A stretch of DNA of 63,854 bases, filler included, from 16 parts of 16 records of this genome joined end to end with filler, not necessarily neighbours in it; one strand, 5' to 3'. Shown: positions 10,221 through 58,436, numbered from the whole stretch's first letter. Numbers and translations: made by a program. Notes: a model not told the origin generated them from the letters alone.

Positions 10221-10293
<73 letters not shown>

Positions 10294-11630: not shown

Positions 11631-11871
11631 ATCGTGTCAATCTTAATTCAGGGCTATACGAGTTCGATTTGCGGAGAATCAGTAATGTATAATGTTAGGT
11701 ACATTTATTAGAAAGTCGGGGCCCTNNNNNNNNNNNNNNNNNNNNNNNNNNNNNNNNNNNNNNNNNNNNTTAATTAATTAANNNNNNNNNNNNNNNNNNN
11801 NNNNNNNNNNNNNNNNNNNNNNNNNGAATCCACCCTGGAGTCTAGACCGTGGAGGCAACTCTGATGCTCCG

Positions 11872-14800
11872 ATGAACGACAGGCTGCTGGGAGCTGGTTC
11901 GGCGGCCCCGGACGAGCCGCTGCGTATAGTCCGGGTGGGCCGGGCGCGCTGTGGGCGGTCCGATCAGGCTGGTGGCAGGTGGGCGACGGTGGTGAAGGCT
12001 TCCCGGTGCAGCCGCGAGGCTGGGAGGGGCCTTAGGGCAGTGGGCAGGATAACACGATCGTCAACACCAAGTACACCCCGCTGAGCTTTATACCCCAAAA
12101 CCTGTGCGAGCAATTCGCCCGGTGCCCGGCCCGGCTGCCCGGCTTACGGCGGCCGCAGGCCCATCAACCGATACTTTCTGCTGATTGCCTGCCTCCAGCT
12201 CTGGCCCGCCATCACGCCGGTCAATCCGATCACGACCTGGCTGCCGCTGCTGCTCATTTTCGGGATCACCGGCGTTAAGGAGGCGTACGACGACCTCCTC
12301 CGTTGGCGGCGCGACCTCGAGCAAAACGGCCTGCCGGTCGTGGCCTGGCGCGACGGCAGCTGGCGGCCGGTGCCGGCGGCGAGCATCCGCGTGGGCGACA
12401 CGGTCCGGCTGGAACCTGGCGACGGGGTGCCGTGCGACCTGGTGCTGCTCGGGCCGGAGCGCGAGTGCCTGGTGAGCACAGCTAACCTGGACGGCGAAAG
12501 CGACCTCAAGCCAAAGGCGGCCGTGCCAGGGTTGGGCGACCAGCCAGGCCAGGGGGGCTTCACGGGGCTGATCGAGTGCGAGGCGCCCAACCCGCGGCTG
12601 GACCGGTTCGATGCGACGCTCTGGCCAGGGCTGGAGCCTGGGGCGGGGGCTATTCCACTGGGGAGTGAGAATATGCTGCTGGCAGGGAGCAAGCTGGCAG
12701 GGAGCGAGGCGATCGTCGGCGCGGCGGTGTACACTGGCCAGCAGACCAAGCTGGCCATGAACGCCCAGCTGCCGCCGCTCAAATTGACTAGGACAGACCT
12801 GTTCATCAATAGGGCGGCGGTAGCCATCTTCGTGGTCCAGCTGGCTCTCGTAGCCATCTTCGGGGCAGTTGGTTCGGGCTGGGCACTGGGCACTGGGCAG
12901 CACCTGTGGTATTTAGGGTACGCGCTCGGGCCTAACGAGATGCACCGCTGGTGGGGCTGGGTGGTCATCCCGCTCAGATTCCTGCTGCTCTGTTCGTTCA
13001 TGATCCCGATTTCTCTCAAGGTCTGCCGCACAGTAGTAGCCTTATCATATAGTAATAGTAACAGTATATTACTTGCAGTGTGCTCATAGTATAGTCTCGC
13101 TACTGGGCGAGCGGTGGCGCGCAGGTAACGCTCGACGTCTGCAAGATGACGTACGCGTACTTTGTTGCGCAGGACATCGCACTGTACCATCCAGCATCTG
13201 ACCAGCCTGCCACAGCCAACAACAGCTCGATCGGCGAGGAGCTCGGCCTAGTGTCGCACATCCTAACGGACAAGACTGGCACCCTCACCAACAATCTGAT
13301 GCAGTTCGAAAGGTTCTATGTGCCGGATCTGGACGAATCAACAGACATAGCTGCGGTGGCCGCCGACCCGAGCTGCCCGGCCGGCCTGATGGTCCGCTGT
13401 CTGGCATGCTGCCACGGGCTCCGGCTCGGGCCCGATCAGACGTACGAGGGCAGCTCACCCGACGAGCTCGCTCTTGTCAAGTGGGCGGCCGAGGCGGCGG
13501 GGATCTCTTACGCTGGGACCGACCCGGGCGGGCGGATCCTGCTCCAACTGCGCGGCGGGGGCGAGGAGCGGTACGAGCTGCTTGCCACGCTTGGGTTCGA
13601 CTCGTGCCGCAAGCGGATGAGTGTTCTGGTTCGGTGCTCGGGCGGGCTAAAGTTGTTCACTAAAGGCGCCGACGAGATCTTGAACGAGCTGCTCGAGGAC
13701 GGCTGCGACGGCAGACCAATCGCTGCCGCGTCGGACCAGTTTGGTAGACAGGGTCTCCGGGCGCTGGCCATGGCATATCGCGACGTGAGTGCAGAGGAGG
13801 CCTCGGCGTGGCTGGCTCTGCACAGCGCAGCAGCCGTCAAGACCGGTGAAGCCAGGGCGCAGGCCTTGCAAGAGTGCTACGCTCAGTTGGAGGTCAGGCT
13901 GCGCTTGGTAGGGCTGACTGGCATAGCCGATAGCTTGCAACCTGGGGTGCCTCGGACGCTGGAGCTGCTCCAATCGGCTGGGATCGCGATCTGGATGCTG
14001 ACCGGCGACAAAGTCGCAACGGCCGAGCACATCGCCGCACAGTGCAGCATGCTCCCGTCTCCGGCCGCGGCCCACCAGTGCGTGCTCCGAGTGTGCGCTG
14101 GGGCACTCGACGGGCGGCCAGTGTCTGGTCCGGCCCAGCTGGTTTCCCAGTGCGGGCGTGCGATCGAGGAGCATCTAGCTGCGTACCCGGTAGGGCAAGT
14201 GTACATCGTGGCCGATGGCACATCTCTCGCGCTCCTAATGGGCTGTGACGGGTGGCCTGCCGTGGTGCTATCCGGGTGCGTGCAATGCGTGATTTGCTGC
14301 CGAGTCTCTCCAAAGCAGAAGGCCGAGCTTGTCGGGTTGGCAAAGCAGGCTGGCCGGGTCACGCTGGCGATTGGCGACGGTGGCAACGACGTTTCGATGA
14401 TTCGCGAGGCGCATGTAGGGGTGGGGCTGCTCGGGAGGGAAGGAAGGCAAGCGTCGCTCGCCTCCGACTATTCGATAGGCCAGTTCAACGGACTGGCCCG
14501 ATTGGTGCTGGTGCACGGTCACTGGGCGTGCCACCGCACCTCGGTGATTGCTCAGTACTCGTTCTACAGGTGCTACATAGTGTGTAATTGCTAGTTGATT
14601 ATTCATATACGGGGCAGGTCGATCTTCCTGGCGCTGTTCCAGCTCGGTTTTGCGGTGTGCTCCGGGTTCTCCGGGTCGAGCTGGTTCAACACGTTTGCGC
14701 TCACCGGTTACAACGCGTGCTTTACCTTCCTTCCACCGCTCGCTTATATCCTGGACCGCGATGTGCCTGCAAACTTGCTGCTCGAGGGACGACCCGAGCA

Positions 14801-15543
14801 TCGCACCCAGCGGCCGATGGACTGGCAGACGCTAGCCAGCTGGCTGCTCCTGGCGCTTGCACAGGCTGCGGGGCTCTGCCTGCTGTTTATGCCGCGACAA
14901 GTCGAACTAGCCAATCAGTCAGGCCAGCAGGTGTCTCGTTGCTGCCAGCGGATGGTTTACTCTTGCATGGCAGGTCGGGCAGGAGGCTGGGTCGATGTGC
15001 GGATACTCGGCGGCCGTGCTGCTCCAGACGGGGATTTTGCTCCGCCAGAGCCACACGCTGACCTGTCTCAACCTGCTGGCCATCCTCGGCTCGCTCGCGC
15101 TGTGAGTGCTAACTCATCTTAATTAATTGACACGTCCCGGGCTGATGCTAGCCATGCACAGATACGTGGCCTCCGCGTTCGCGCTGTCGGCGGTGGCGCG
15201 CACTTCGATGTACGGCATCATGCCCTGGTTGGCCACCAGCGCAGCCGGGTGGCTGTATGTAATACTTGGGACTGCGGGCGCCATGCTGCTCTCGGCTGCT
15301 AGTCCAGTTGGCGTGTTTGAGTGGGCGCGGGCCAAGATAGAAGACGGCCCGGAGCTCAGCTGTTGCGGCGGATGCGACGGCGAGGCCGACACGTTGCTAG
15401 CGAGCCCGGCTGATCGGTCTGGTTTAATGGCAGGCTGGTTGATTGAGGGGCAGGTGGGAGCACGAGGGGCGGCGAGACTCGGAGCGACTGCACCCGCTGA
15501 CCCGGATGGACTCAGACCTCTAGATTGGATGTCAGAAGTGTAG
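11872..15543 (+). CDS. P4-type ATPase (phospholipid flippase), ALA2-like, multi-exon
   Basis: NTKYTPLSFIPQNL, NLDGESDLK, MIPISLKV, DKTGTLT phosphorylation site, SPDE, KGAD, TGDK, CCRVSPKQK, GDGGNDV. The 3' end is approximate. Confidence 0.93.
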
Positions 15544-15847
15544 TTATAGAATTATGATGGAATAAAAGCGTAAACCGTGCACGTTACAACAGTACAAGTC
15601 TATGCGAGATTGTGAGTAGTATGTACGATTCGTATGAGAACCGTACTCAATTTTAAAAAGCAATCAATGAAAACACACTTCCTAGATCCGCTGATTATAC
15701 ATGTACAATCAGCTGCCTTCTTAAGTTATGCTGACAGCCAGTGTTGAACCAGCCAGGCCACTAGATGACGGAGGAGGCCACCACTCAGGCACCCACCAGA
15801 CACGTGGGTTAACCCAAGAATCAACCCGCTGTAGCGCCAGCCCCGCC

Positions 15848-16327
15848 TCACTGCGACGCCCCCTGCAGCGTCCTCCTGGCCGCCGGGGAGAGCGGGAACA
15901 CCAGCTCAGTTGGCGCCCGGGCTGGTGCCCCGGCAGGCGGCAGCCCCTCGGCCGGGGTTGTGCTCGACAGGTTCACCGCCCGGGGCATATACGCGTGGCC
16001 CGCACCGTACGAGTGCGGATGCCGCATCCCCAGGCCCATCTGTGGCCCCCACATGTACGGATTTACACCGTGCGCGCTTCGAGGCGGCAGCCGGGGCAGC
16101 GCGGCCCCGATGGTTGCGGCCCCGCCCTTTGGCAGCCGGCCGATCTGAGCAAGCATGACAGCCTGGACGGCGGTCAGACGCTCCTCAGACAGCTCCTCGG
16201 GCAGCTCCTCGGGCAGCTCCTCGGCCGGCGGGTCAACCGGCTCCGGGTCGGCGGCCGGCTCTGGGCTGGCGGCTGGCTTTGACGGGCTTGCGCCCAAAGT
16301 GTTGAGCCGAGCCTGCGTCGACTCCAT
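15848..16327 (-). CDS. Hypothetical Pro/Glu-rich protein
   Basis: ATG-initiated ORF with EELP tandem repeats and no recognised domain. Confidence 0.4.
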   Translation of the reverse strand: MESTQARLNTLGASPSKPAASPEPAADPEPVDPPAEELPEELPEELSEERLTAVQAVMLAQIGRLPKGGAATIGAALPRLPPRSAHGVNPYMWGPQMGLGMRHPHSYGAGHAYMPRAVNLSSTTPAEGLPPAGAPARAPTELVFPLSPAARRTLQGASQ

Positions 16328-16740
16328 TTGAAATCAGCGTTACACACGCATTGATGAGCGGATGGGCCTCAGGCTTCCTCAGTACTAGTGCAGCACCTGA
16401 AATCATGATGCGTCATGATGTCTCAAGTGTTCAGCCATCTGTTCATCGCTCGGCTTCGTGGTTGACCCAGCTCGCGCCACCAGCGCTCGATAGCGCTCAA
16501 CGTGACCCCTTGCGGCTACCCAATGCTTAAAACCCTCTCCCGAGTAATTTTCGTCATTTTATAATTATTAAGTCTACTACAGTACTGTTGCACTGTACGG
16601 TACAACAATTCTCTAAGTCTAAATTCGAATAAATATCTTTNNNNNNNNNNNNNNNNNNNNNNNNNNNNNNNNNNNNNNNNNNNNTTAATTAATTAANNNN
16701 NNNNNNNNNNNNNNNNNNNNNNNNNNNNNNNNNNNNNNNN

Positions 16741-28092: not shown

Positions 28093-28857
28093 TTATGGGG
28101 CTTCAGCTGCGGCCGGCTCGGATGCCGCGACCTGCAGCCGACCGGCCACCCCGTGCTTGGAGATCAGCCGCTCGACCAGCCCCGATGCCTTAGCCTCCTC
28201 CACAAACGCCCGCAGGAACTCGATAGCTTCCTGCCCGCCATCCGGCCGCTTCAGACAGCCCACCGCCTGCTGCACCGCCATGAACGGCTGATCTATCACT
28301 CGGTACCGCCCGGGCGCCTTGGCCATGTCCTCCGCCAGCTTGGACTTGAGCCCCGCCAGCCCCTCCAGCCGCTCGGCGTCAAACAGCTCGTAGCTCGCGT
28401 CCAGCGTATCAGCCTCGCACATCTCGGCGTGCTCCAAGTGCCGGCGCAGCCACAGGTGGTACGCTGCCCCGGCTTTGACCGCGATCCGGGTCCCCGGGGC
28501 GTCCAGATCGGCGGGGCACTGTGCGGTTGAGTCCCGCGGCACCATGTAGCAGCAGTGAATCTCGCTATAAGCCGGGGTGAAGTCGATGAAGTCCATCCGC
28601 AATGGGTCGGCCCCCACCAGCCCGATGTCCCACGCGGCCTGCTCGGCCGCCGCGCACACCTCGGCCGGGCCTTTGAACGGGATGAGCTCCAGACCCACCC
28701 CCAGCCGGTCGGCGATGGCAGCTGCCATGTCCGGCGAGACCCCCACCGGCTGGGGCGTGTGCGGCCCACTCACCAGCAGGAAGTTCGACAGGTTGATCCC
28801 CGCCCGCAGGACCCCGCCCGGGGCCAGCTGCGCCCGAGCAGCCGACAGCAGCGCCAT
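28093..28857 (-). CDS. Bacterial-type polar amino-acid ABC solute-binding protein (SBP_bac_3/PBP2 fold), intronless
   Basis: LAPGGVLRAGINLSNFLLV, GVSPDMAAAIADRLG, WDIGL, FTPAYSEI, D.PG.RIAV..G.AY, F+EEAKASGLV. Confidence 0.85.
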   Translation of the reverse strand: MALLSAARAQLAPGGVLRAGINLSNFLLVSGPHTPQPVGVSPDMAAAIADRLGVGLELIPFKGPAEVCAAAEQAAWDIGLVGADPLRMDFIDFTPAYSEIHCCYMVPRDSTAQCPADLDAPGTRIAVKAGAAYHLWLRRHLEHAEMCEADTLDASYELFDAERLEGLAGLKSKLAEDMAKAPGRYRVIDQPFMAVQQAVGCLKRPDGGQEAIEFLRAFVEEAKASGLVERLISKHGVAGRLQVAASEPAAAEAP

Positions 28858-28935
28858 GCCGGATAGAGTCTACTGTAAATAACGGAAGAAGATGCGGGAT
28901 CCCACGGAAGAGCGACGACGCAGTCGGTCGGCAGC

Positions 28936-53050: not shown

Positions 53051-56000
53051 GCCCCCCCCCCCCCCCCCTCAATAACTAGCTCGCCCGCACCCCAGCGGTC
53101 AGGACACGTTTGGCGCCTCGCCCGCCGAGCCGCCGGACCGGTCACCTGGACCGGCCGTACTCAGCAGCAACCACTCAGTGCTGTCCGTTGAGCAGGTACT
53201 CGACTCGCCGCCGCCGGAGCTGGGGGGACGTGATGGTCATGATCCTTGCCCTGCTCGGTCCCGCCCCCCGCACCCTGACCGCCGCCAGCCTACCGGCAGA
53301 TCTACTGGCCTCGCTGGCGTTCGCGATCGGGCGGGCGGCCACCGGCTCGGGCCCCAGCTGCGCGGCCCAGGGGTTTGTGATCCAGACCTTCGCGCTGAGC
53401 ACGGCGCGCGCCTCGATTGGGTGCAGCGTTACCCCCCGCGGCAGGTGCTCTGGACCACCTGCATCTCGGCTAACCTTTTCGGATGGGTCTGCCTGGTGCC
53501 GTGTCCGTTAAATCCGTTGAAATCCGTTGGGTGGACAGCGCCAGCCCGAGCAGCGGCTCCGGCGGATGCTGCCTTGGTACCTCATAGTCTCTATAGGCCT
53601 TCCGTTAGGGTTCGCGATTCTAGCCGCCGGGTGCGTGTGTCCGTTGGGAGGTTCCGTTGGAACTGTGCCGTTGGGGCAGGTATGACTTGTATGAGGATTC
53701 GATTCTCTGGTGCTGGCTCGGCGGGACCGGCTGGCAGTTCGGGCTGTTCTACGTCTGGGTGGCCACCAGCCCAACAGACTTAATATTATTAATATTAATC
53801 ATTAACGGACTTACAATAGACAGGTGCTGCTCTCCTGGCTGACAGTTGTGGTGCTGGTGCTCTTCGTCCGAGGCCAAATCCGTAAACGCCGCCGACTGGC
53901 CGCCGGATCCGACGCTGACGCTGATCGGTACACGCCGCTGTATATATACAATGTTAGTCCAGCCCGACTGTATTTTAACGGAAATTACAGCCCGGTGCTG
54001 GCTCGGCTGCAGCAGTATGTGGCCAGTTTCTTGATCATATGGGCAGTTGGCCTGACCAACCGCGCGGTGCCATTGTCTGCGCGGGGCGCCGGTCACGAGG
54101 CCGTTGTCAGGTGACGGCCGCTGCAGGGCCGCAGTTCTGGTTAATGCTGCTGCACGTGCTGTTCGTCCCTTCCCAGGGACTGGTCAATGCGCTTATTTAC
54201 GGTGTCCGTTGGTGAGATTTCCGTTGAGCAACGGTGCAGGCTCCTTGCTGCAGAGGCTGCTGGCTAGTGCGGGCTGCTTGGAGTCTGTACCAGCGCAGCA
54301 GAGCGAGCCAGGTGTGTGTGGGGGGGGGGGGGGGGCTGAAGGGCGGCAGAGTGGCAGCCGCTTCGGCCGGCGGAGGCGGCGGGGGGGGGACGCGTCTCAG
54401 TGAAGGTGCGAGCTTACGTTCTTAAATGGCTGTTAGTATTGCATCTGGCTGCAGGCAGCCCCGCGCTGCTAGCACTACCAGAGTCTAGCATCACACTGTT
54501 TGGTCAGGTCTGGTCTGGCACCTTCAACATGGGCTCGGAGCCCGCAGTTAGCGCCGAGTTTCTGCCTCTTGGGGCTCAACTCTACTTCCTTGCAGTCCAG
54601 GCGCTGCCCAATAACCGACACTGTCCTATCTGAGTGAGGCACCCCGCAGGAGTGCATGGACGTGGAGCAGATATGTCAGCTGGTCAGAGCACGGCTGCAA
54701 GGTGGCAGCCACATACAGCGACTGCAAGGTGATTGTGCTGGCGTAGGTCAGTTTAAAGAGTTCCGAGCTGTCGAAGGCTCCATTAGACTCTACAACGGGT
54801 GCCTGCCTGATAGAGGGCCTGTCACACGCTCCGATTAGGTTCATAGCTCTGCTCTGCTGGGCGAGTCAAGAGCTCATCGACTCCGGACAAATCTCTCTCA
54901 AAGATGTAACCCCAATAATACTAACAACAGCCACAAGCCCGGGGGCGCAGGATGTAGCCAGGAGCGCCGTCGAGTGCGGAGTCAACCTCGGGGTCAAGAG
55001 AGCTTTCAATAAAGGGGCAGTGGCGATGCGCTTCGCGGTGGGAGCGAGTTCGCTGGCAGTGGTTGGATGCCACCTCACATCTGACTCCGACGGCAAGAGC
55101 AAGGCTGGGGATACGGGTGCACAGGGCTGATCGGTTCGCAGGTGGAGGCTCGTCGAAGTGATTTGAGCAAAATTGTGTCAGAGCTGCAGTTAGATTACGA
55201 CGGCAATGGGGTTGTGGGCGACTTCACGCTCACGCAGCACCACTGTATCCTGCTGGGCGATTTAAACTTTCGAGTGGTGTCACGCACCTTCTTAATTAGG
55301 AAATATCTCCGGATGTGTGACACTGTAGTGCTGGTGCAGGGGCTGCCTCCGGAGGCGGCACTCGATCTGATTTCGAGGCAGCGCTGGGCGACGCTGCTCG
55401 AACACGACGAGCTCTCGCAAGACTTGTCGAGCGGCGCGGTGTCACACCTTCCTAATTGGGAAACATGTTAACGTCTTCCTGATTAGGGCATTCCAGGTGC
55501 TGCACGGATGGGAAGAAGATCCGATCAGGTGAGTCGGAGGGCGGATGTTTGCTGATGCCGGTGGCAGCTTCGCTCCCAGCTATCGGCTGGTTAAAGGCAG
55601 GACCGTAGACCCTATGGGCGCAGGTGTGACACCTTCCTAATTAGGAGATTGTATAGCTTAACACCTTCCTAATTAGGGCATAGCTTAACGCCTACGGGCG
55701 CAGACACACCGTCGGCTGAACAGCTCGAGCGCCGGTGCTACACGACAGAGGTGCGTGTGACAAGCCCGATGCTGTTGAGTCTCCAAAGGTCGGAAGCGCC
55801 ACGGGGAAGCGATCGAGCCGGACGCCTTCGTATACTGACAGAGTAACTGACAATTTCTATTTTCGGCACAGTGCGTGGGATAGGTTTTGTATCGGTCGCT
55901 GCCGGATCTGACGGGCGGTCTGGCCTGCCTGGAATATGGCGCAAGCCCGATGATCACGTCGAGTGACCACTTCCCGGTGAGGCTTGTACTTTAAGTGCTA

Positions 56001-56207
56001 GTACAGGTTCTGCTGTATAGTAGTACTGCTGCTGTGCTGACTGGCCGCAGGTGGGCGCGTTGTTTGAATGCAGCAGCGCGTTGGTGAGGCCTGCTCTGAT
56101 GGCTCAAGTGTCCATCAGACTGTCGAGCCTCACTCAACATGAGACTGCAGACCAGCCAGAGACCGTGCAGGCGAGCCGCATAGCTTAACACCTTCCCGAT
56201 TAGGAGA
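53051..56207 (+). CDS. cAMP-receptor-like (Dicty_CAR/Git3-type) GPCR fused to an inositol polyphosphate 5-phosphatase; partial at both ends
   Basis: GPCR part: DLLAS, CAAQGFVIQTF, LWTTCIS, WCWL, LFYVW, RLQQYV..FLIIW, SQGLVNALIYG. Phosphatase part: GTFNM, AVQE, NKGAV, VGCHL, GDLNFR, FAPSYR, PSYTDRVL, SDHFPV. No stop codon between them after splicing. Confidence 0.85.
55277..56207 (+). mobile_element. Introner-like repeat family, core (GTGT[C/G])ACACCTTCCTAATTAGG, in introns 55277-55339, 55439-55496, 55624-55703 and at the contig end 56178-56207
   Basis: Shared sequence among different introns of one gene, palindromic core CCTAATTAGG, and a 13-nt flanking direct repeat at one copy. Confidence 0.7.
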
Positions 56208-56664: not shown

Positions 56665-58436
56665 ATGGCTCAGCCTGTACCGGTACGAGTGCTGGCTGTG
56701 CTGGCCAGCGTACTCGGCCTGGTCGAGCCCAAGACGGTGTCTGTGCGGGACGATTCAGTGTACCCGGGCCAGTTCTCGTACCTCACCAAGTTCTGCTTCG
56801 CCAAGGCTTCCCGGGCCGGCTGGGCCCCCGGCTGAGCAGCCGGGCGCAGGGCAAGGGCCAGGTCAAATTTAGCTTCTCGGAGTCTGTGCTGGACGGCAAG
56901 CACCACCTGGTGCTGTACATGGACCAGGCTCCACCTCCGCCCCGCGCTGCCGCCATCCCGGGCATCCAGGTGTGGCCCGAGGCACTGCGGGCCAGCCAGT
57001 GTGAAGAGAAGCTCAACATCGGGGGCAAGAAGGCGGTCAGAGTGAGCCTGCCCCCCCCGAGTGGCACCTGGACGGCGGGCAGATCAAGCTTGACGGGAAC
57101 GCGGAAGAGACGGATGGGTACTCCACGATGCGATTCATGAAGCCTCAGACGCACTCGATCGTGCAACACGCCCGGCCACATTACTGGTACGCAGTACTGG
57201 TGACCCGCCGCCAGTGGCCACTCGGCCGCCTGAGCGGGACCAGGTCAACTGCGAAGCCACTGGGGAGGCGCATGACCCCGTGCACTACGATCTTGAGTTC
57301 TTAAACGATGATTCACACTTTTCAGCAGGTGGGCGTGTCGGCGCGGCTATCTGATCACAGCCTGCAGATGACGTGGGCGTGACGTTCACCTTTATGGTGT
57401 TCGTCGGGCTCAATGCGGTCGGCGTGTTCATTGTGAAGCGGCTCCAGTATCACTACAAGTAAGCGGGCGCGCCTCTTCGGAACTGATCAGTCTCTCCAGG
57501 CGTCGCAAGCCGTTCTTTCACCCGGTGATATGTGTGCTAGCGGTCGCGCTGGCGATGCAGTACCCATCGCTGCTATTTCAACTGCTGCACAGACTATCGT
57601 ACAGCTGGAATGGCGTTGGGCTCCCGATGGTGCATTTGCTGGGCAGGTTCCTTCACGAGATAGCCAAAACGGTCAGCAGTCCCGGACAAGCCTGGGCAGT
57701 ACCGGCGGCAGGTGCTGCTGTGCCTTTTCATCGTGATCTCGCAAGGCTGGACTATCAGCACCGACGAGATTCCGAGCGCCCCTGTGCTGGCGAGTGGCTG
57801 TGCTGCCGCACACTCAGTAGTTTGCAGGTGCCGGTGGCTGCCTCGTGCCTGTTATTCGAGCTGACAAGCCTCGCTGTGGAGTCCTGGTACCATGATAGCC
57901 ACGACTCATACTCCACCGCCAAGGAGGGCGGGCTCGGGTGCGCGCTGCCCGTGTGCGGCCCGAGCTTGCCCCAGGCTGGCTTTCATCCTGCTGCAGCTGA
58001 CGTACTTCTGGTTCTTCCTCAGGGGCGCCAAGCGGTGCCTGACTCGCGGGGTTGGCTGATCCCGGCCGGCAGATGCATCCGTGTAGTCGAGGAGCAGCAA
58101 CTGACTAAGCGGCGTGCCTTCTTCTTGGCGTTCACGTTTTGCTGTTCTATCTGGTGTGCCAGCTTGCTGTGCTCACATTGACTGAGGCTGGCCCAAGGAT
58201 ACTAGCTGAGCCACTAGTTGTGCTACTCATGCCAATGTTCTCGAGCCACCGCCGCTACCAAATCACCATATGCACGTCTATTGCGATCCAGGTCCGAGCA
58301 GCCTAATTTGGCGCCAATCTGCGTGTCTTTCCAGATGACGGCTCTCGGGCTGCTCTCCCGGCTCTTCTTGTGGCGCTCGCTATACTTTGAAGTGTCGAGC
58401 ATGTCGGACTCATTCCTCGGCGGGCGGCACGGATAG
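56665..58436 (+). CDS. GPR180/TMEM145-like (GOST family) seven-transmembrane protein, multi-exon
   Basis: Signal peptide; YLTKFCF, HYWYAVL.NC, YDLEFLN..SHFSADD.G, LH..SYS.NGVG, SQGWTIS, LF....YFEVS. Confidence 0.8.

Follow-up and report, generated by a model that had tools for sequence, protein, structure and literature searches.

A candidate fusion of a seven-transmembrane receptor-like domain to a 5-phosphatase on an intron-dense protist contig

The DNA considered here (the window, 63,854 nt) is made up of 16 contigs of 3.1-4.8 kb with GC contents of 0.56-0.66, separated by spacers of N/TTAATTAATTAA. The 16 short contigs look unrelated, and apparent features that cross a spacer represent no real linkage. 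Positions 53051-56207 correspond exactly to one whole contig of 3157 nt, whose + strand carries a domain of seven-transmembrane (7TM) type and an intact 5-phosphatase domain in the right order, with 306 nt between the last codon of the seventh transmembrane segment (TM7; ending at 54201) and the first phosphatase codon (54508). We put at about 60% the probability that this is a real single-gene 7TM-5-phosphatase fusion, probably of the type in which a G protein-coupled receptor is joined to an inositol polyphosphate phosphatase (GPCR-INPP). The gene is truncated by the contig on both its 5′ and 3′ sides. At the 5′ side the contig begins with a G and a run of 17 C (53051-53068), probably a low-complexity assembly end, and at the 3′ side it ends within a copy of an intron repeat (56188-56204, in the region 56172-56207). 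From coordinates, three-frame translation and hydropathy we built an exon model for the + strand comprising 21 exons separated by 20 introns (35-102 nt), 17 of them GT-AG and three GC-AG, which when spliced gives a single reading of 618 aa without a stop.

The phosphatase half of the model consists of 12 exons. The first (54508-54600) encodes the first strand, VWSGTFNMG … LAVQ, and is followed by a GC-AG intron (54601-54649). The second (54650-54759) begins with the E of …VQ|E, and its 3′ boundary is uncertain, the GC-AG intron 54777-54813 being an alternative to the modelled 54760-54838. There follow exon 3 (54839-54905), exon 4 (54951-55103; NKGAVAMRF…VVGCHLTSDSD), exon 5 (55142-55276; …HHCILLGDLNFRV), exon 6 (55340-55438), exon 7 (55497-55528), exon 8 (55568-55623; FAPSYRLVKGRTVDPMGA), exon 9 (55704-55750), exon 10 (55789-55842; …RTPSYTDR, a motif read from the sequence), exon 11 (55884-55976; VLYRS…SSDHFP) and exon 12 (56051-56170; VGALFE…), after which the gene runs on beyond the contig end.

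The identity of this domain is established by several comparisons. In Pfam scans, for which single exons or open reading frame (ORF) pieces served as queries, family PF22669 (Exo_endo_phos2 / IPPc) matches the ORF piece 55085-55468 at 29.0 bits against a cut-off of 27 (E=9.7e-7, profile positions 141-215) and the ORF piece 54747-55127 at 24.0 bits (E=3.4e-5, profile positions 85-140). The two pieces are adjacent and collinear across the GC-AG intron 55104-55141, and together they cover positions 85-215 of the 288 in the profile. Queried singly, exon 4 matches profile positions 99-140 (E=5.2e-5) and exon 5 positions 143-181. Exons encoding the first or the last third of the domain, when searched singly against Pfam and the PDB, gave no matches, the queries of 18-36 residues being too short to be informative; likewise, exons 54508-54600 and 55884-55976 had no hidden Markov model or PDB match, each alone.

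When 1.84 billion representative proteins were searched by HMMER with a 100-aa query (55142-55441), six matches were returned at E<=0.001. Four of these (P0001, P0002, P0005 and P0006) are internally repetitive, align over numerous brief segments, in part with intron-encoded residues of the query, and were discarded as artefacts. The remaining two are fragments. P0004 (122 aa) aligns with the spliced model at 61 of 121 positions (50% identity) with a single one-residue gap; identity is 59% in exon 5 and 61% in exon 8, exons 6 and 7 are included, and the alignment extends into exon 9. Because it runs across five intron sites (55104-55141, 55277-55339, 55439-55496, 55529-55567 and 55624-55703), five phosphatase introns, one of them GC-AG, are confirmed. 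P0004 in turn matches the solved structures of OCRL (3.5e-12), SHIP2 (4.6e-11) and synaptojanin (5.5e-10; PDB 4cmn, 3nr8 and 7a17, respectively), and its neighbours in the ESM Atlas carry PF22669. P0003 (68 aa), compared over window positions 55312-55445, shows 100% identity across exon 55340-55438 and the last part of the intron before it, and departs from the contig precisely where the following intron begins, once past GTGTCA; on this match P0003 is the same gene from another assembly, with either different intron content or a break at that point. Prokaryote-style ORF calling on intron-dense fragments yields only pieces, P0003 and P0004 being examples.

At the level of motifs, exon 54951-55103 aligns residue for residue with SHIP2 through NKGAV…CHLTS, and LGDLNFRVGLP aligns with P0004, whose equivalent segment aligns with OCRL. 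The motifs TFNMG, VQ|E, GDLNFR, PSYTDR|VL and SDHFP|V are all intact in the translation of the spliced model, and we take them, in part from what is generally known of the family, to be catalytic positions. Judged by these matches, the phosphatase domain is genuine, well above chance, and it is apparently active.

Upstream, the exons between 53227 and 54201 encode, according to hydropathy and our reading of the translation, TM2-TM7 preceded by a partial helix that is present as a 10-residue hydrophobic stub. The first exon of the model (53227-53391, with a possible start at 53196) holds the end of this partial helix, a short basic loop, TM2, an outer loop with a cysteine and the first half of TM3; its 3′ boundary is uncertain, since a GC-AG intron (53392-53444) is assumed and keeping the residues ALS requires a non-canonical donor. 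The subsequent exons encode the second half of TM3 (53445-53495), an arginine-rich inner loop 2 with TM4 (53539-53630), an acidic outer loop 2 with the start of TM5 (53680-53758), TM5 with a basic inner loop 3 (53824-53927), TM6 with outer loop 3 (53991-54091, for which an alternative intron, 54067-54134, is equally in frame) and TM7 (54127-54201; …FVPSQGLVNALIY). TM1 probably lies outside the contig, the interval 53069-53195 containing no hydrophobic ORF. Positions 53184-53195 are likely the 3′ end of a further intron: a TCCGTTGA motif precedes GCAG there, and intron 54202-54239 has this motif and closes in this way too. For this reason one or more 5′ exons probably lie beyond the contig end as well.

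The distribution of charge, arginine-rich in inner loops 2 and 3 and acidic in outer loop 2, accords with the positive-inside rule and places the C-terminus, and with it the phosphatase, in the cytosol. The only family match in this half is to Pfam GPR_Gpa2_C, a model of TM6-7 of Git3/Gpr1-type receptors; it reaches 17.7 bits (E=0.0038) for the ORF 53979-54212 and 16.0 bits (E=0.012) for the TM7 exon alone, both below the cut-off of 21 bits. The original prediction had looked to a profile scan for both a Dicty_CAR/Git3-type receptor and a 5-phosphatase; the phosphatase family was found above its cut-off, while for the receptor there was no Dicty_CAR/Git3 match and only the sub-cut-off similarity to GPR_Gpa2_C. 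The label GPCR is a reasonable, if provisional, one for the 7TM part.

The key question is how the two halves are connected. Directly after TM7 comes an exon (54240-54311) encoding an amphipathic, helix-8-like tail (SLLQRLLASAGC…SEP, with a cysteine at the end), whose coding score of 0.165 per codon is like that of other exons. Beyond it we consider two splice models. In the first, introns 54202-54239, 54312-54349 and 54406-54507 are removed and a 56-nt linker exon (54350-54405; EWQPLRPAEAAGGGRVSVK) is kept, which gives the 618-aa product. The second of these introns, 38 nt long and GT-AG, contains a (GT)4 tract that offers donors in all three phases and a run of 16 G (54320-54335), and the linker exon itself contains a run of nine G (54381-54389). 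The third, of 102 nt and also GT-AG, is in frame and without a stop even if retained. In the second model a single 194-nt intron (54314-54507) uses the next GT of the (GT)4 tract and the same acceptor, so that the linker exon is skipped in frame; under this model the lengths of the two G runs are irrelevant.

According to the original prediction, the reading frame of TM7 stays open as far as the first strand of a 5-phosphatase with intact GDLNFR, PSYTDRVL and SDHFPV motifs. This holds once the three GT-AG introns of the first model are removed, and every peptide on which the claim was based is found in + strand translations: SQGLVNALIYG of TM7 at 54171-54203, SLLQRLL... from 54242, VWSGTFNMG at 54508-54534, GDLNFR at 55256-55273, PSYTDR|VLY at 55825-55842 joined to 55884, and SDHFP|V at 55962-55976 joined to 56051. 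All three motifs are present in the translation of the spliced model. The two halves also resemble each other in that tiny GT-AG and GC-AG introns are common to both, and in coding score per codon (7TM part, 0.148; phosphatase part, 0.136), and both agree with the way codons are used on the other contigs.

Several results weigh against a single gene. The number of ways to cross the linker without a stop, using GT or GC donors and AG acceptors, is large: 216 paths with one intron, 144 of them in phase, and 14,158 paths with two introns, of which 7753 are in phase. With so many stop-free paths, an in-frame one is expected by chance and is weak evidence by itself. The proposed linker exon scores only 0.049 per codon, almost no signal, and is therefore unproven; the codon-usage scores of the linker alternatives are all near zero and do not discriminate among them. 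A rival start exists at ATG 54426, with a GTTAGT donor. GC at third codon positions (GC3) is 0.785 in the 7TM half and 0.671 in the phosphatase half. Only six helices are clear in the contig, TM1 not being among them, and in the scans of exons and ORF pieces no Pfam match above cut-off was obtained for the 7TM part. Searches of external data have likewise given the join no support. No RNA run was matched to the contig, and the one public run that was, a seawater metagenome containing 0.06 of the sampled words, yielded a single contig of 216 nt (55638-55852) that leaves the junction uncovered. Among the 1.84 billion representatives, the relatives found by HMMER are the fragments P0003 and P0004, and no fused one. 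Word-index protein searches gave no matches for 55085-55468 (926 candidates) or for P0004 (208 candidates). In a scan of metagenome contigs, the protein pattern from 54747-55127 matched 269 stretches, none of which was confirmed, and an exact 24-nt pattern from TM7 had no match.

Of the alternatives, the one that survives best is that the contig holds two tightly packed genes. In this scenario intron 54312-54349 is coding, the receptor-like gene ends at the TGA of 54401-54403, a stop in frame 0, with a tail …SEPGVCGGGGGAEGRQSGSRFGRRRRRGGDASQ, and a stand-alone 5-phosphatase begins at ATG 54426. From 54340 onward, 56 codons ahead of the first strand, the phosphatase frame is free of stops and contains no ATG, which favours the fusion; the sole ATG between TM7 and 54508 is the one at 54426, in another frame (frame 1), where it is followed by GCT (54426-54431) and a GTTAGT donor at 54432. 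The separate phosphatase would thus have a first exon of two codons, spliced from 54432 to 54507 to give M-A|VWSGTFNMG…. Both the stop and the ATG exist, the 76-nt intron is canonical, and the linker exon demanded by the first fusion model is, as noted, without coding signal. A glycine/arginine-rich tail of 54 residues would be ordinary for a 7TM protein. The genome has a compact look: on another contig, at most ~174 nt separate the head-to-head ORFs for CSN6 and an ABC transporter. Against this, the read-through tail scores 0.005 per codon, and GTT is an uncommon donor start here, 13 of the 17 GT donors in the model beginning GTG. Two genes on the same strand would be separated by 22 nt from stop to ATG, too little to hold the 3′ end of one and the promoter of the other, and first exons of two codons are uncommon; because it needs both such a gap and such an exon, we rate the two-gene model lower and consider it unlikely.

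Alternatively, the fusion could be real while the membrane part is a multi-pass anchor or transporter-like domain and not a ligand-regulated receptor. The lack of any GPCR family at the Pfam cut-off, the count of six clear helices in the contig and the absence of a visible ligand-binding ectodomain all fit such a domain. On the other hand, the sole Pfam match of the TM7 exon is to a GPCR family (GPR_Gpa2_C, E=0.0038), and the pattern of helices and loops, the cysteine atop TM3 and the helix-8-like tail fit the GPCR fold as it is generally known. The published 7TM-INPP proteins are, in the portions of the literature considered here, classed as GPCR-bigrams. We regard the anchor reading as improbable.

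The least probable of these explanations is an assembly or amplification chimera, with two unrelated loci, from one genome or from two, linked at the G-rich tract 54320-54335. In its favour are the C17 run at the contig start, the runs of 16 and nine G at the join, the difference in GC3, the different intron motif families of the two halves (see below) and the divergence of P0003, from another assembly, after exon 55340-55438. Against it, a random join would have had to preserve strand and domain order and to land exactly between the tail that follows TM7 and the strand with which the phosphatase begins; the assembler stopped at other low-complexity sites (both contig ends, the 3′ one in a repeat) and did not bridge them; one codon table and one intron size class fit both halves; the motif of the phosphatase half recurs in degenerate form at 54820, and the G tract is bordered by neither motif family; and reads most likely spanned the run, because 16 G is below the usual assembly word sizes and unique sequence flanks it on both sides.

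If the preferred reading of a single fusion gene is correct, its product and mode of action might be pictured as follows. The contig would carry part of one intron-dense nuclear gene of a high-GC marine protist. A GPCR-like multi-pass domain would continue from its last helix into the helix-8-like amphipathic tail, then into a linker of 25-42 residues and a complete, apparently active 5-phosphatase domain on the cytosolic side. The membrane domain would keep the enzyme at the inner leaflet, near its predicted substrate, PI(4,5)P2 and/or PI(3,4,5)P3. A ligand-induced shift of TM6/TM7 and the tail could then alter the position or activity of the phosphatase, so that sensing would be converted directly to 5-phosphate removal, whether or not a G protein takes part. 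What the sequence itself establishes is the two domain-coding regions with their order, strand and spacing, five phosphatase introns and the presence of the catalytic motifs; we infer the presence of both parts on one mRNA, the binding of a ligand by the 7TM part and the identity of the substrate.

Proteins of this architecture have been described before. GPCR-INPPs were reported in 2018, with seven genes in Phytophthora infestans and 1-9 in other oomycetes; outside oomycetes, the main text of that report (leaving its supplementary tables aside) gives them only for Nannochloropsis gaditana, which has seven genes (van den Hoogen et al. 2018; PMC5784254). The oomycete precedent invoked in the original prediction is thus a published one, to which Nannochloropsis is to be added. 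Across the literature searched, in the portions considered, the phosphatase-type fusion appears only in oomycetes and this one eustigmatophyte alga. By comparison, fusions of a GPCR to a phosphatidylinositol phosphate kinase (GPCR-PIPKs) are described as scattered over nearly all supergroups (PMC5784254, PMC6033456), including RpkA of Dictyostelium and members in oomycetes, haptophytes, Aureococcus, ciliates, amoebozoans and choanoflagellates (PMC5784254, PMC3206951). A 2025 survey of GPCRs in animal relatives mentions, in the sections considered here, only the PIPK type of fusion (PMC12716839).

The gene described here probably represents a GPCR-INPP from a different lineage; the kind itself is already known and is not new. 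Like the GPCR-INPP bigrams, as far as their description in PMC5784254 goes, it combines an N-terminal 7TM domain with a C-terminal inositol polyphosphate phosphatase predicted to be cytosolic, in a unicellular aquatic eukaryote. It differs from them in that the host has no stramenopile affinity in one marker, in having 20 tiny introns, and in that the fusion lacks RNA confirmation. Published GPCR-INPPs were not among the matches at E<=0.001 of the HMMER search with the 100-aa query, a result which shows only that published members are not close. With GPCR-PIPKs, as they are outlined in the reports cited above, it shares the succession of a 7TM domain, a short amphipathic segment resembling helix 8 and a phosphoinositide enzyme, the SLLQRLLASAGC tail taking the place of the LRxGI segment; the LRxGI motif is absent here, and the enzyme is a 5-phosphatase, whose reaction is opposite to that of the kinase.

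Stand-alone type II 5-phosphatases, such as OCRL/INPP5B, SHIP2 and synaptojanin, belong to the same catalytic domain family; unlike the protein proposed here they are soluble or peripheral, are recruited by other domains and have no 7TM domain. Ci-VSP, in which a four-helix voltage sensor is joined to a PTEN-like enzyme, offers a more distant parallel. Both Ci-VSP and the plant 7TM-RGS proteins (7TM domains with a regulator of G protein signalling; outlined in PMC6033456) place a membrane sensor, a short linker and a cytosolic enzyme or regulator in one chain, with no need for a diffusible intermediate. The sensor and enzyme folds of Ci-VSP differ from those considered here and the partner in 7TM-RGS is an RGS domain, so these proteins are analogues and not relatives.

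GPCR-enzyme fusions ("bigrams") are predicted to bypass the relay from receptor to G protein to effector. If true, the occurrence of one in a marine protist of unrelated ancestry would extend the range of GPCR-INPPs, and it would provide a second, very different sequence in which to find conserved features of the receptor-to-enzyme linker. Were the fusion true and the host also outside the stramenopiles, GPCR-INPPs would be no stramenopile speciality, and would be either old and scattered, like GPCR-PIPKs, or of multiple origins; receptor-tethered turnover of PIP2 would in that case be a general design in protist signalling.

The nature of the host is therefore relevant, and what can be said about it comes largely from other contigs. 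The assignment of the 16 contigs to a common organism would be based on their similar GC content, codon usage and intron style and on nothing further. CUL3 and CSN6, which had been suggested for placing the host, sit on contigs other than 53051-56207. A cullin exon compared with the ESM Atlas yielded no usable taxonomic signal. The marker used is a flippase (P4-ATPase) gene at window positions 11826-16640, with introns of 34-68 nt that were mapped with P0007-P0009. When a 491-aa exon of this gene was compared with 5.8 billion non-redundant proteins, the best of the matches listed was a EukProt transcript at 47% identity, and the best named matches among them, at 36-41%, were amoebozoans, Mesostigma, Anaeramoeba, and animals or plants. 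There was no oomycete, other stramenopile, eustigmatophyte or haptophyte among the named ones of the 120 matches listed. With flippase identities of at most 47%, the host has no close sequenced relative. Oomycetes, Nannochloropsis and Emiliania were considered as hosts and rejected, because their genomes are public and yet flippase matches do not exceed 47%; if the contigs belong together, the host is very unlikely to be any of these. The earlier impression that the genome does not look like that of an oomycete is borne out by this, and by the 20 introns in 3.1 kb. A more specific proposal, that a deep-branching marine protist from outside the stramenopiles is the host and carries a genuine GPCR-5-phosphatase fusion, is tentative and on the whole doubtful, if less so than the rival readings above.

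One 48-nt GT-AG intron of the flippase gene (14569-14616) is in frame and holds the sole stop, and so mimics a read-through stop codon; an alternative genetic code, which this in-frame stop might have suggested, is ruled out by its position within the intron. GC-AG introns occur at a noticeable rate in the host (3 of 20 in the gene model). For reference, and to the extent that the sources were consulted, GC donors make up 56-65% in Emiliania huxleyi (PMC4028052), and GC-AG introns ~14-17% in pelagophytes, which have <1 intron per gene (bioRxiv 10.1101/2024.10.30.620910).

In the phosphatase half, introns 55277-55339, 55439-55496 and 55624-55703 (+ strand) have alike starts, GTGTCAC/GTGTGAC followed by ACCTTCCTAATTAGG, and carry one or two copies of a unit of ~17-25 nt (ACACCTTCCTAATTAGG). 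The unit has seven matches in the window, all seven of them in the contig 53051-56207, compared with 0.04 expected. A degenerate copy (54820-54839) lies in intron 54760-54838 and another copy is found at the 3′ end of the contig. P0004 is uninterrupted at the sites of the repeat-bearing introns. To judge from these repeats, the phosphatase introns look like a miniature introner-like family or a local intron duplication. The 7TM half contains instead seven copies of TCCGTTG(A/G) on the + strand (53184-54227), six of which are inside introns 53496-53538, 53631-53679 and 54202-54239; in the window as a whole this word has 15 matches against 3.4 expected. The flippase introns, on their separate contig, have internal short repeats of their own (GCCCGG; ATAGTA), and introns made of short repeated words may be a genome-wide trait.

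Finally, we note some features of the other contigs. Pfam scans of 80 and 150 of their ORFs (the latter out of 181 ORFs of 100-169 aa) detected no second phosphatase and no cAR/Git3-type receptor. On the neighbouring contig, the ORF 57372-58178 (+) matches the GPR180/TMEM145 transmembrane domain (E=2.3e-9) and encodes another protein of 7TM type. A tRNA gene at 10221-10293 (-; 62.7 bits) is flanked by a 441-aa ORF and a dihydrouridine synthase ORF at distances of 84 and 36 nt, gaps so short that they suggest a compact genome. An ORF at 28096-28869 (-) contains a bacterial-type solute-binding domain, SBP_bac_3 (E=2.2e-8), on a contig (26537-29616) that also encodes ankyrin repeats; it may be glutamate-receptor-like or a transferred gene.

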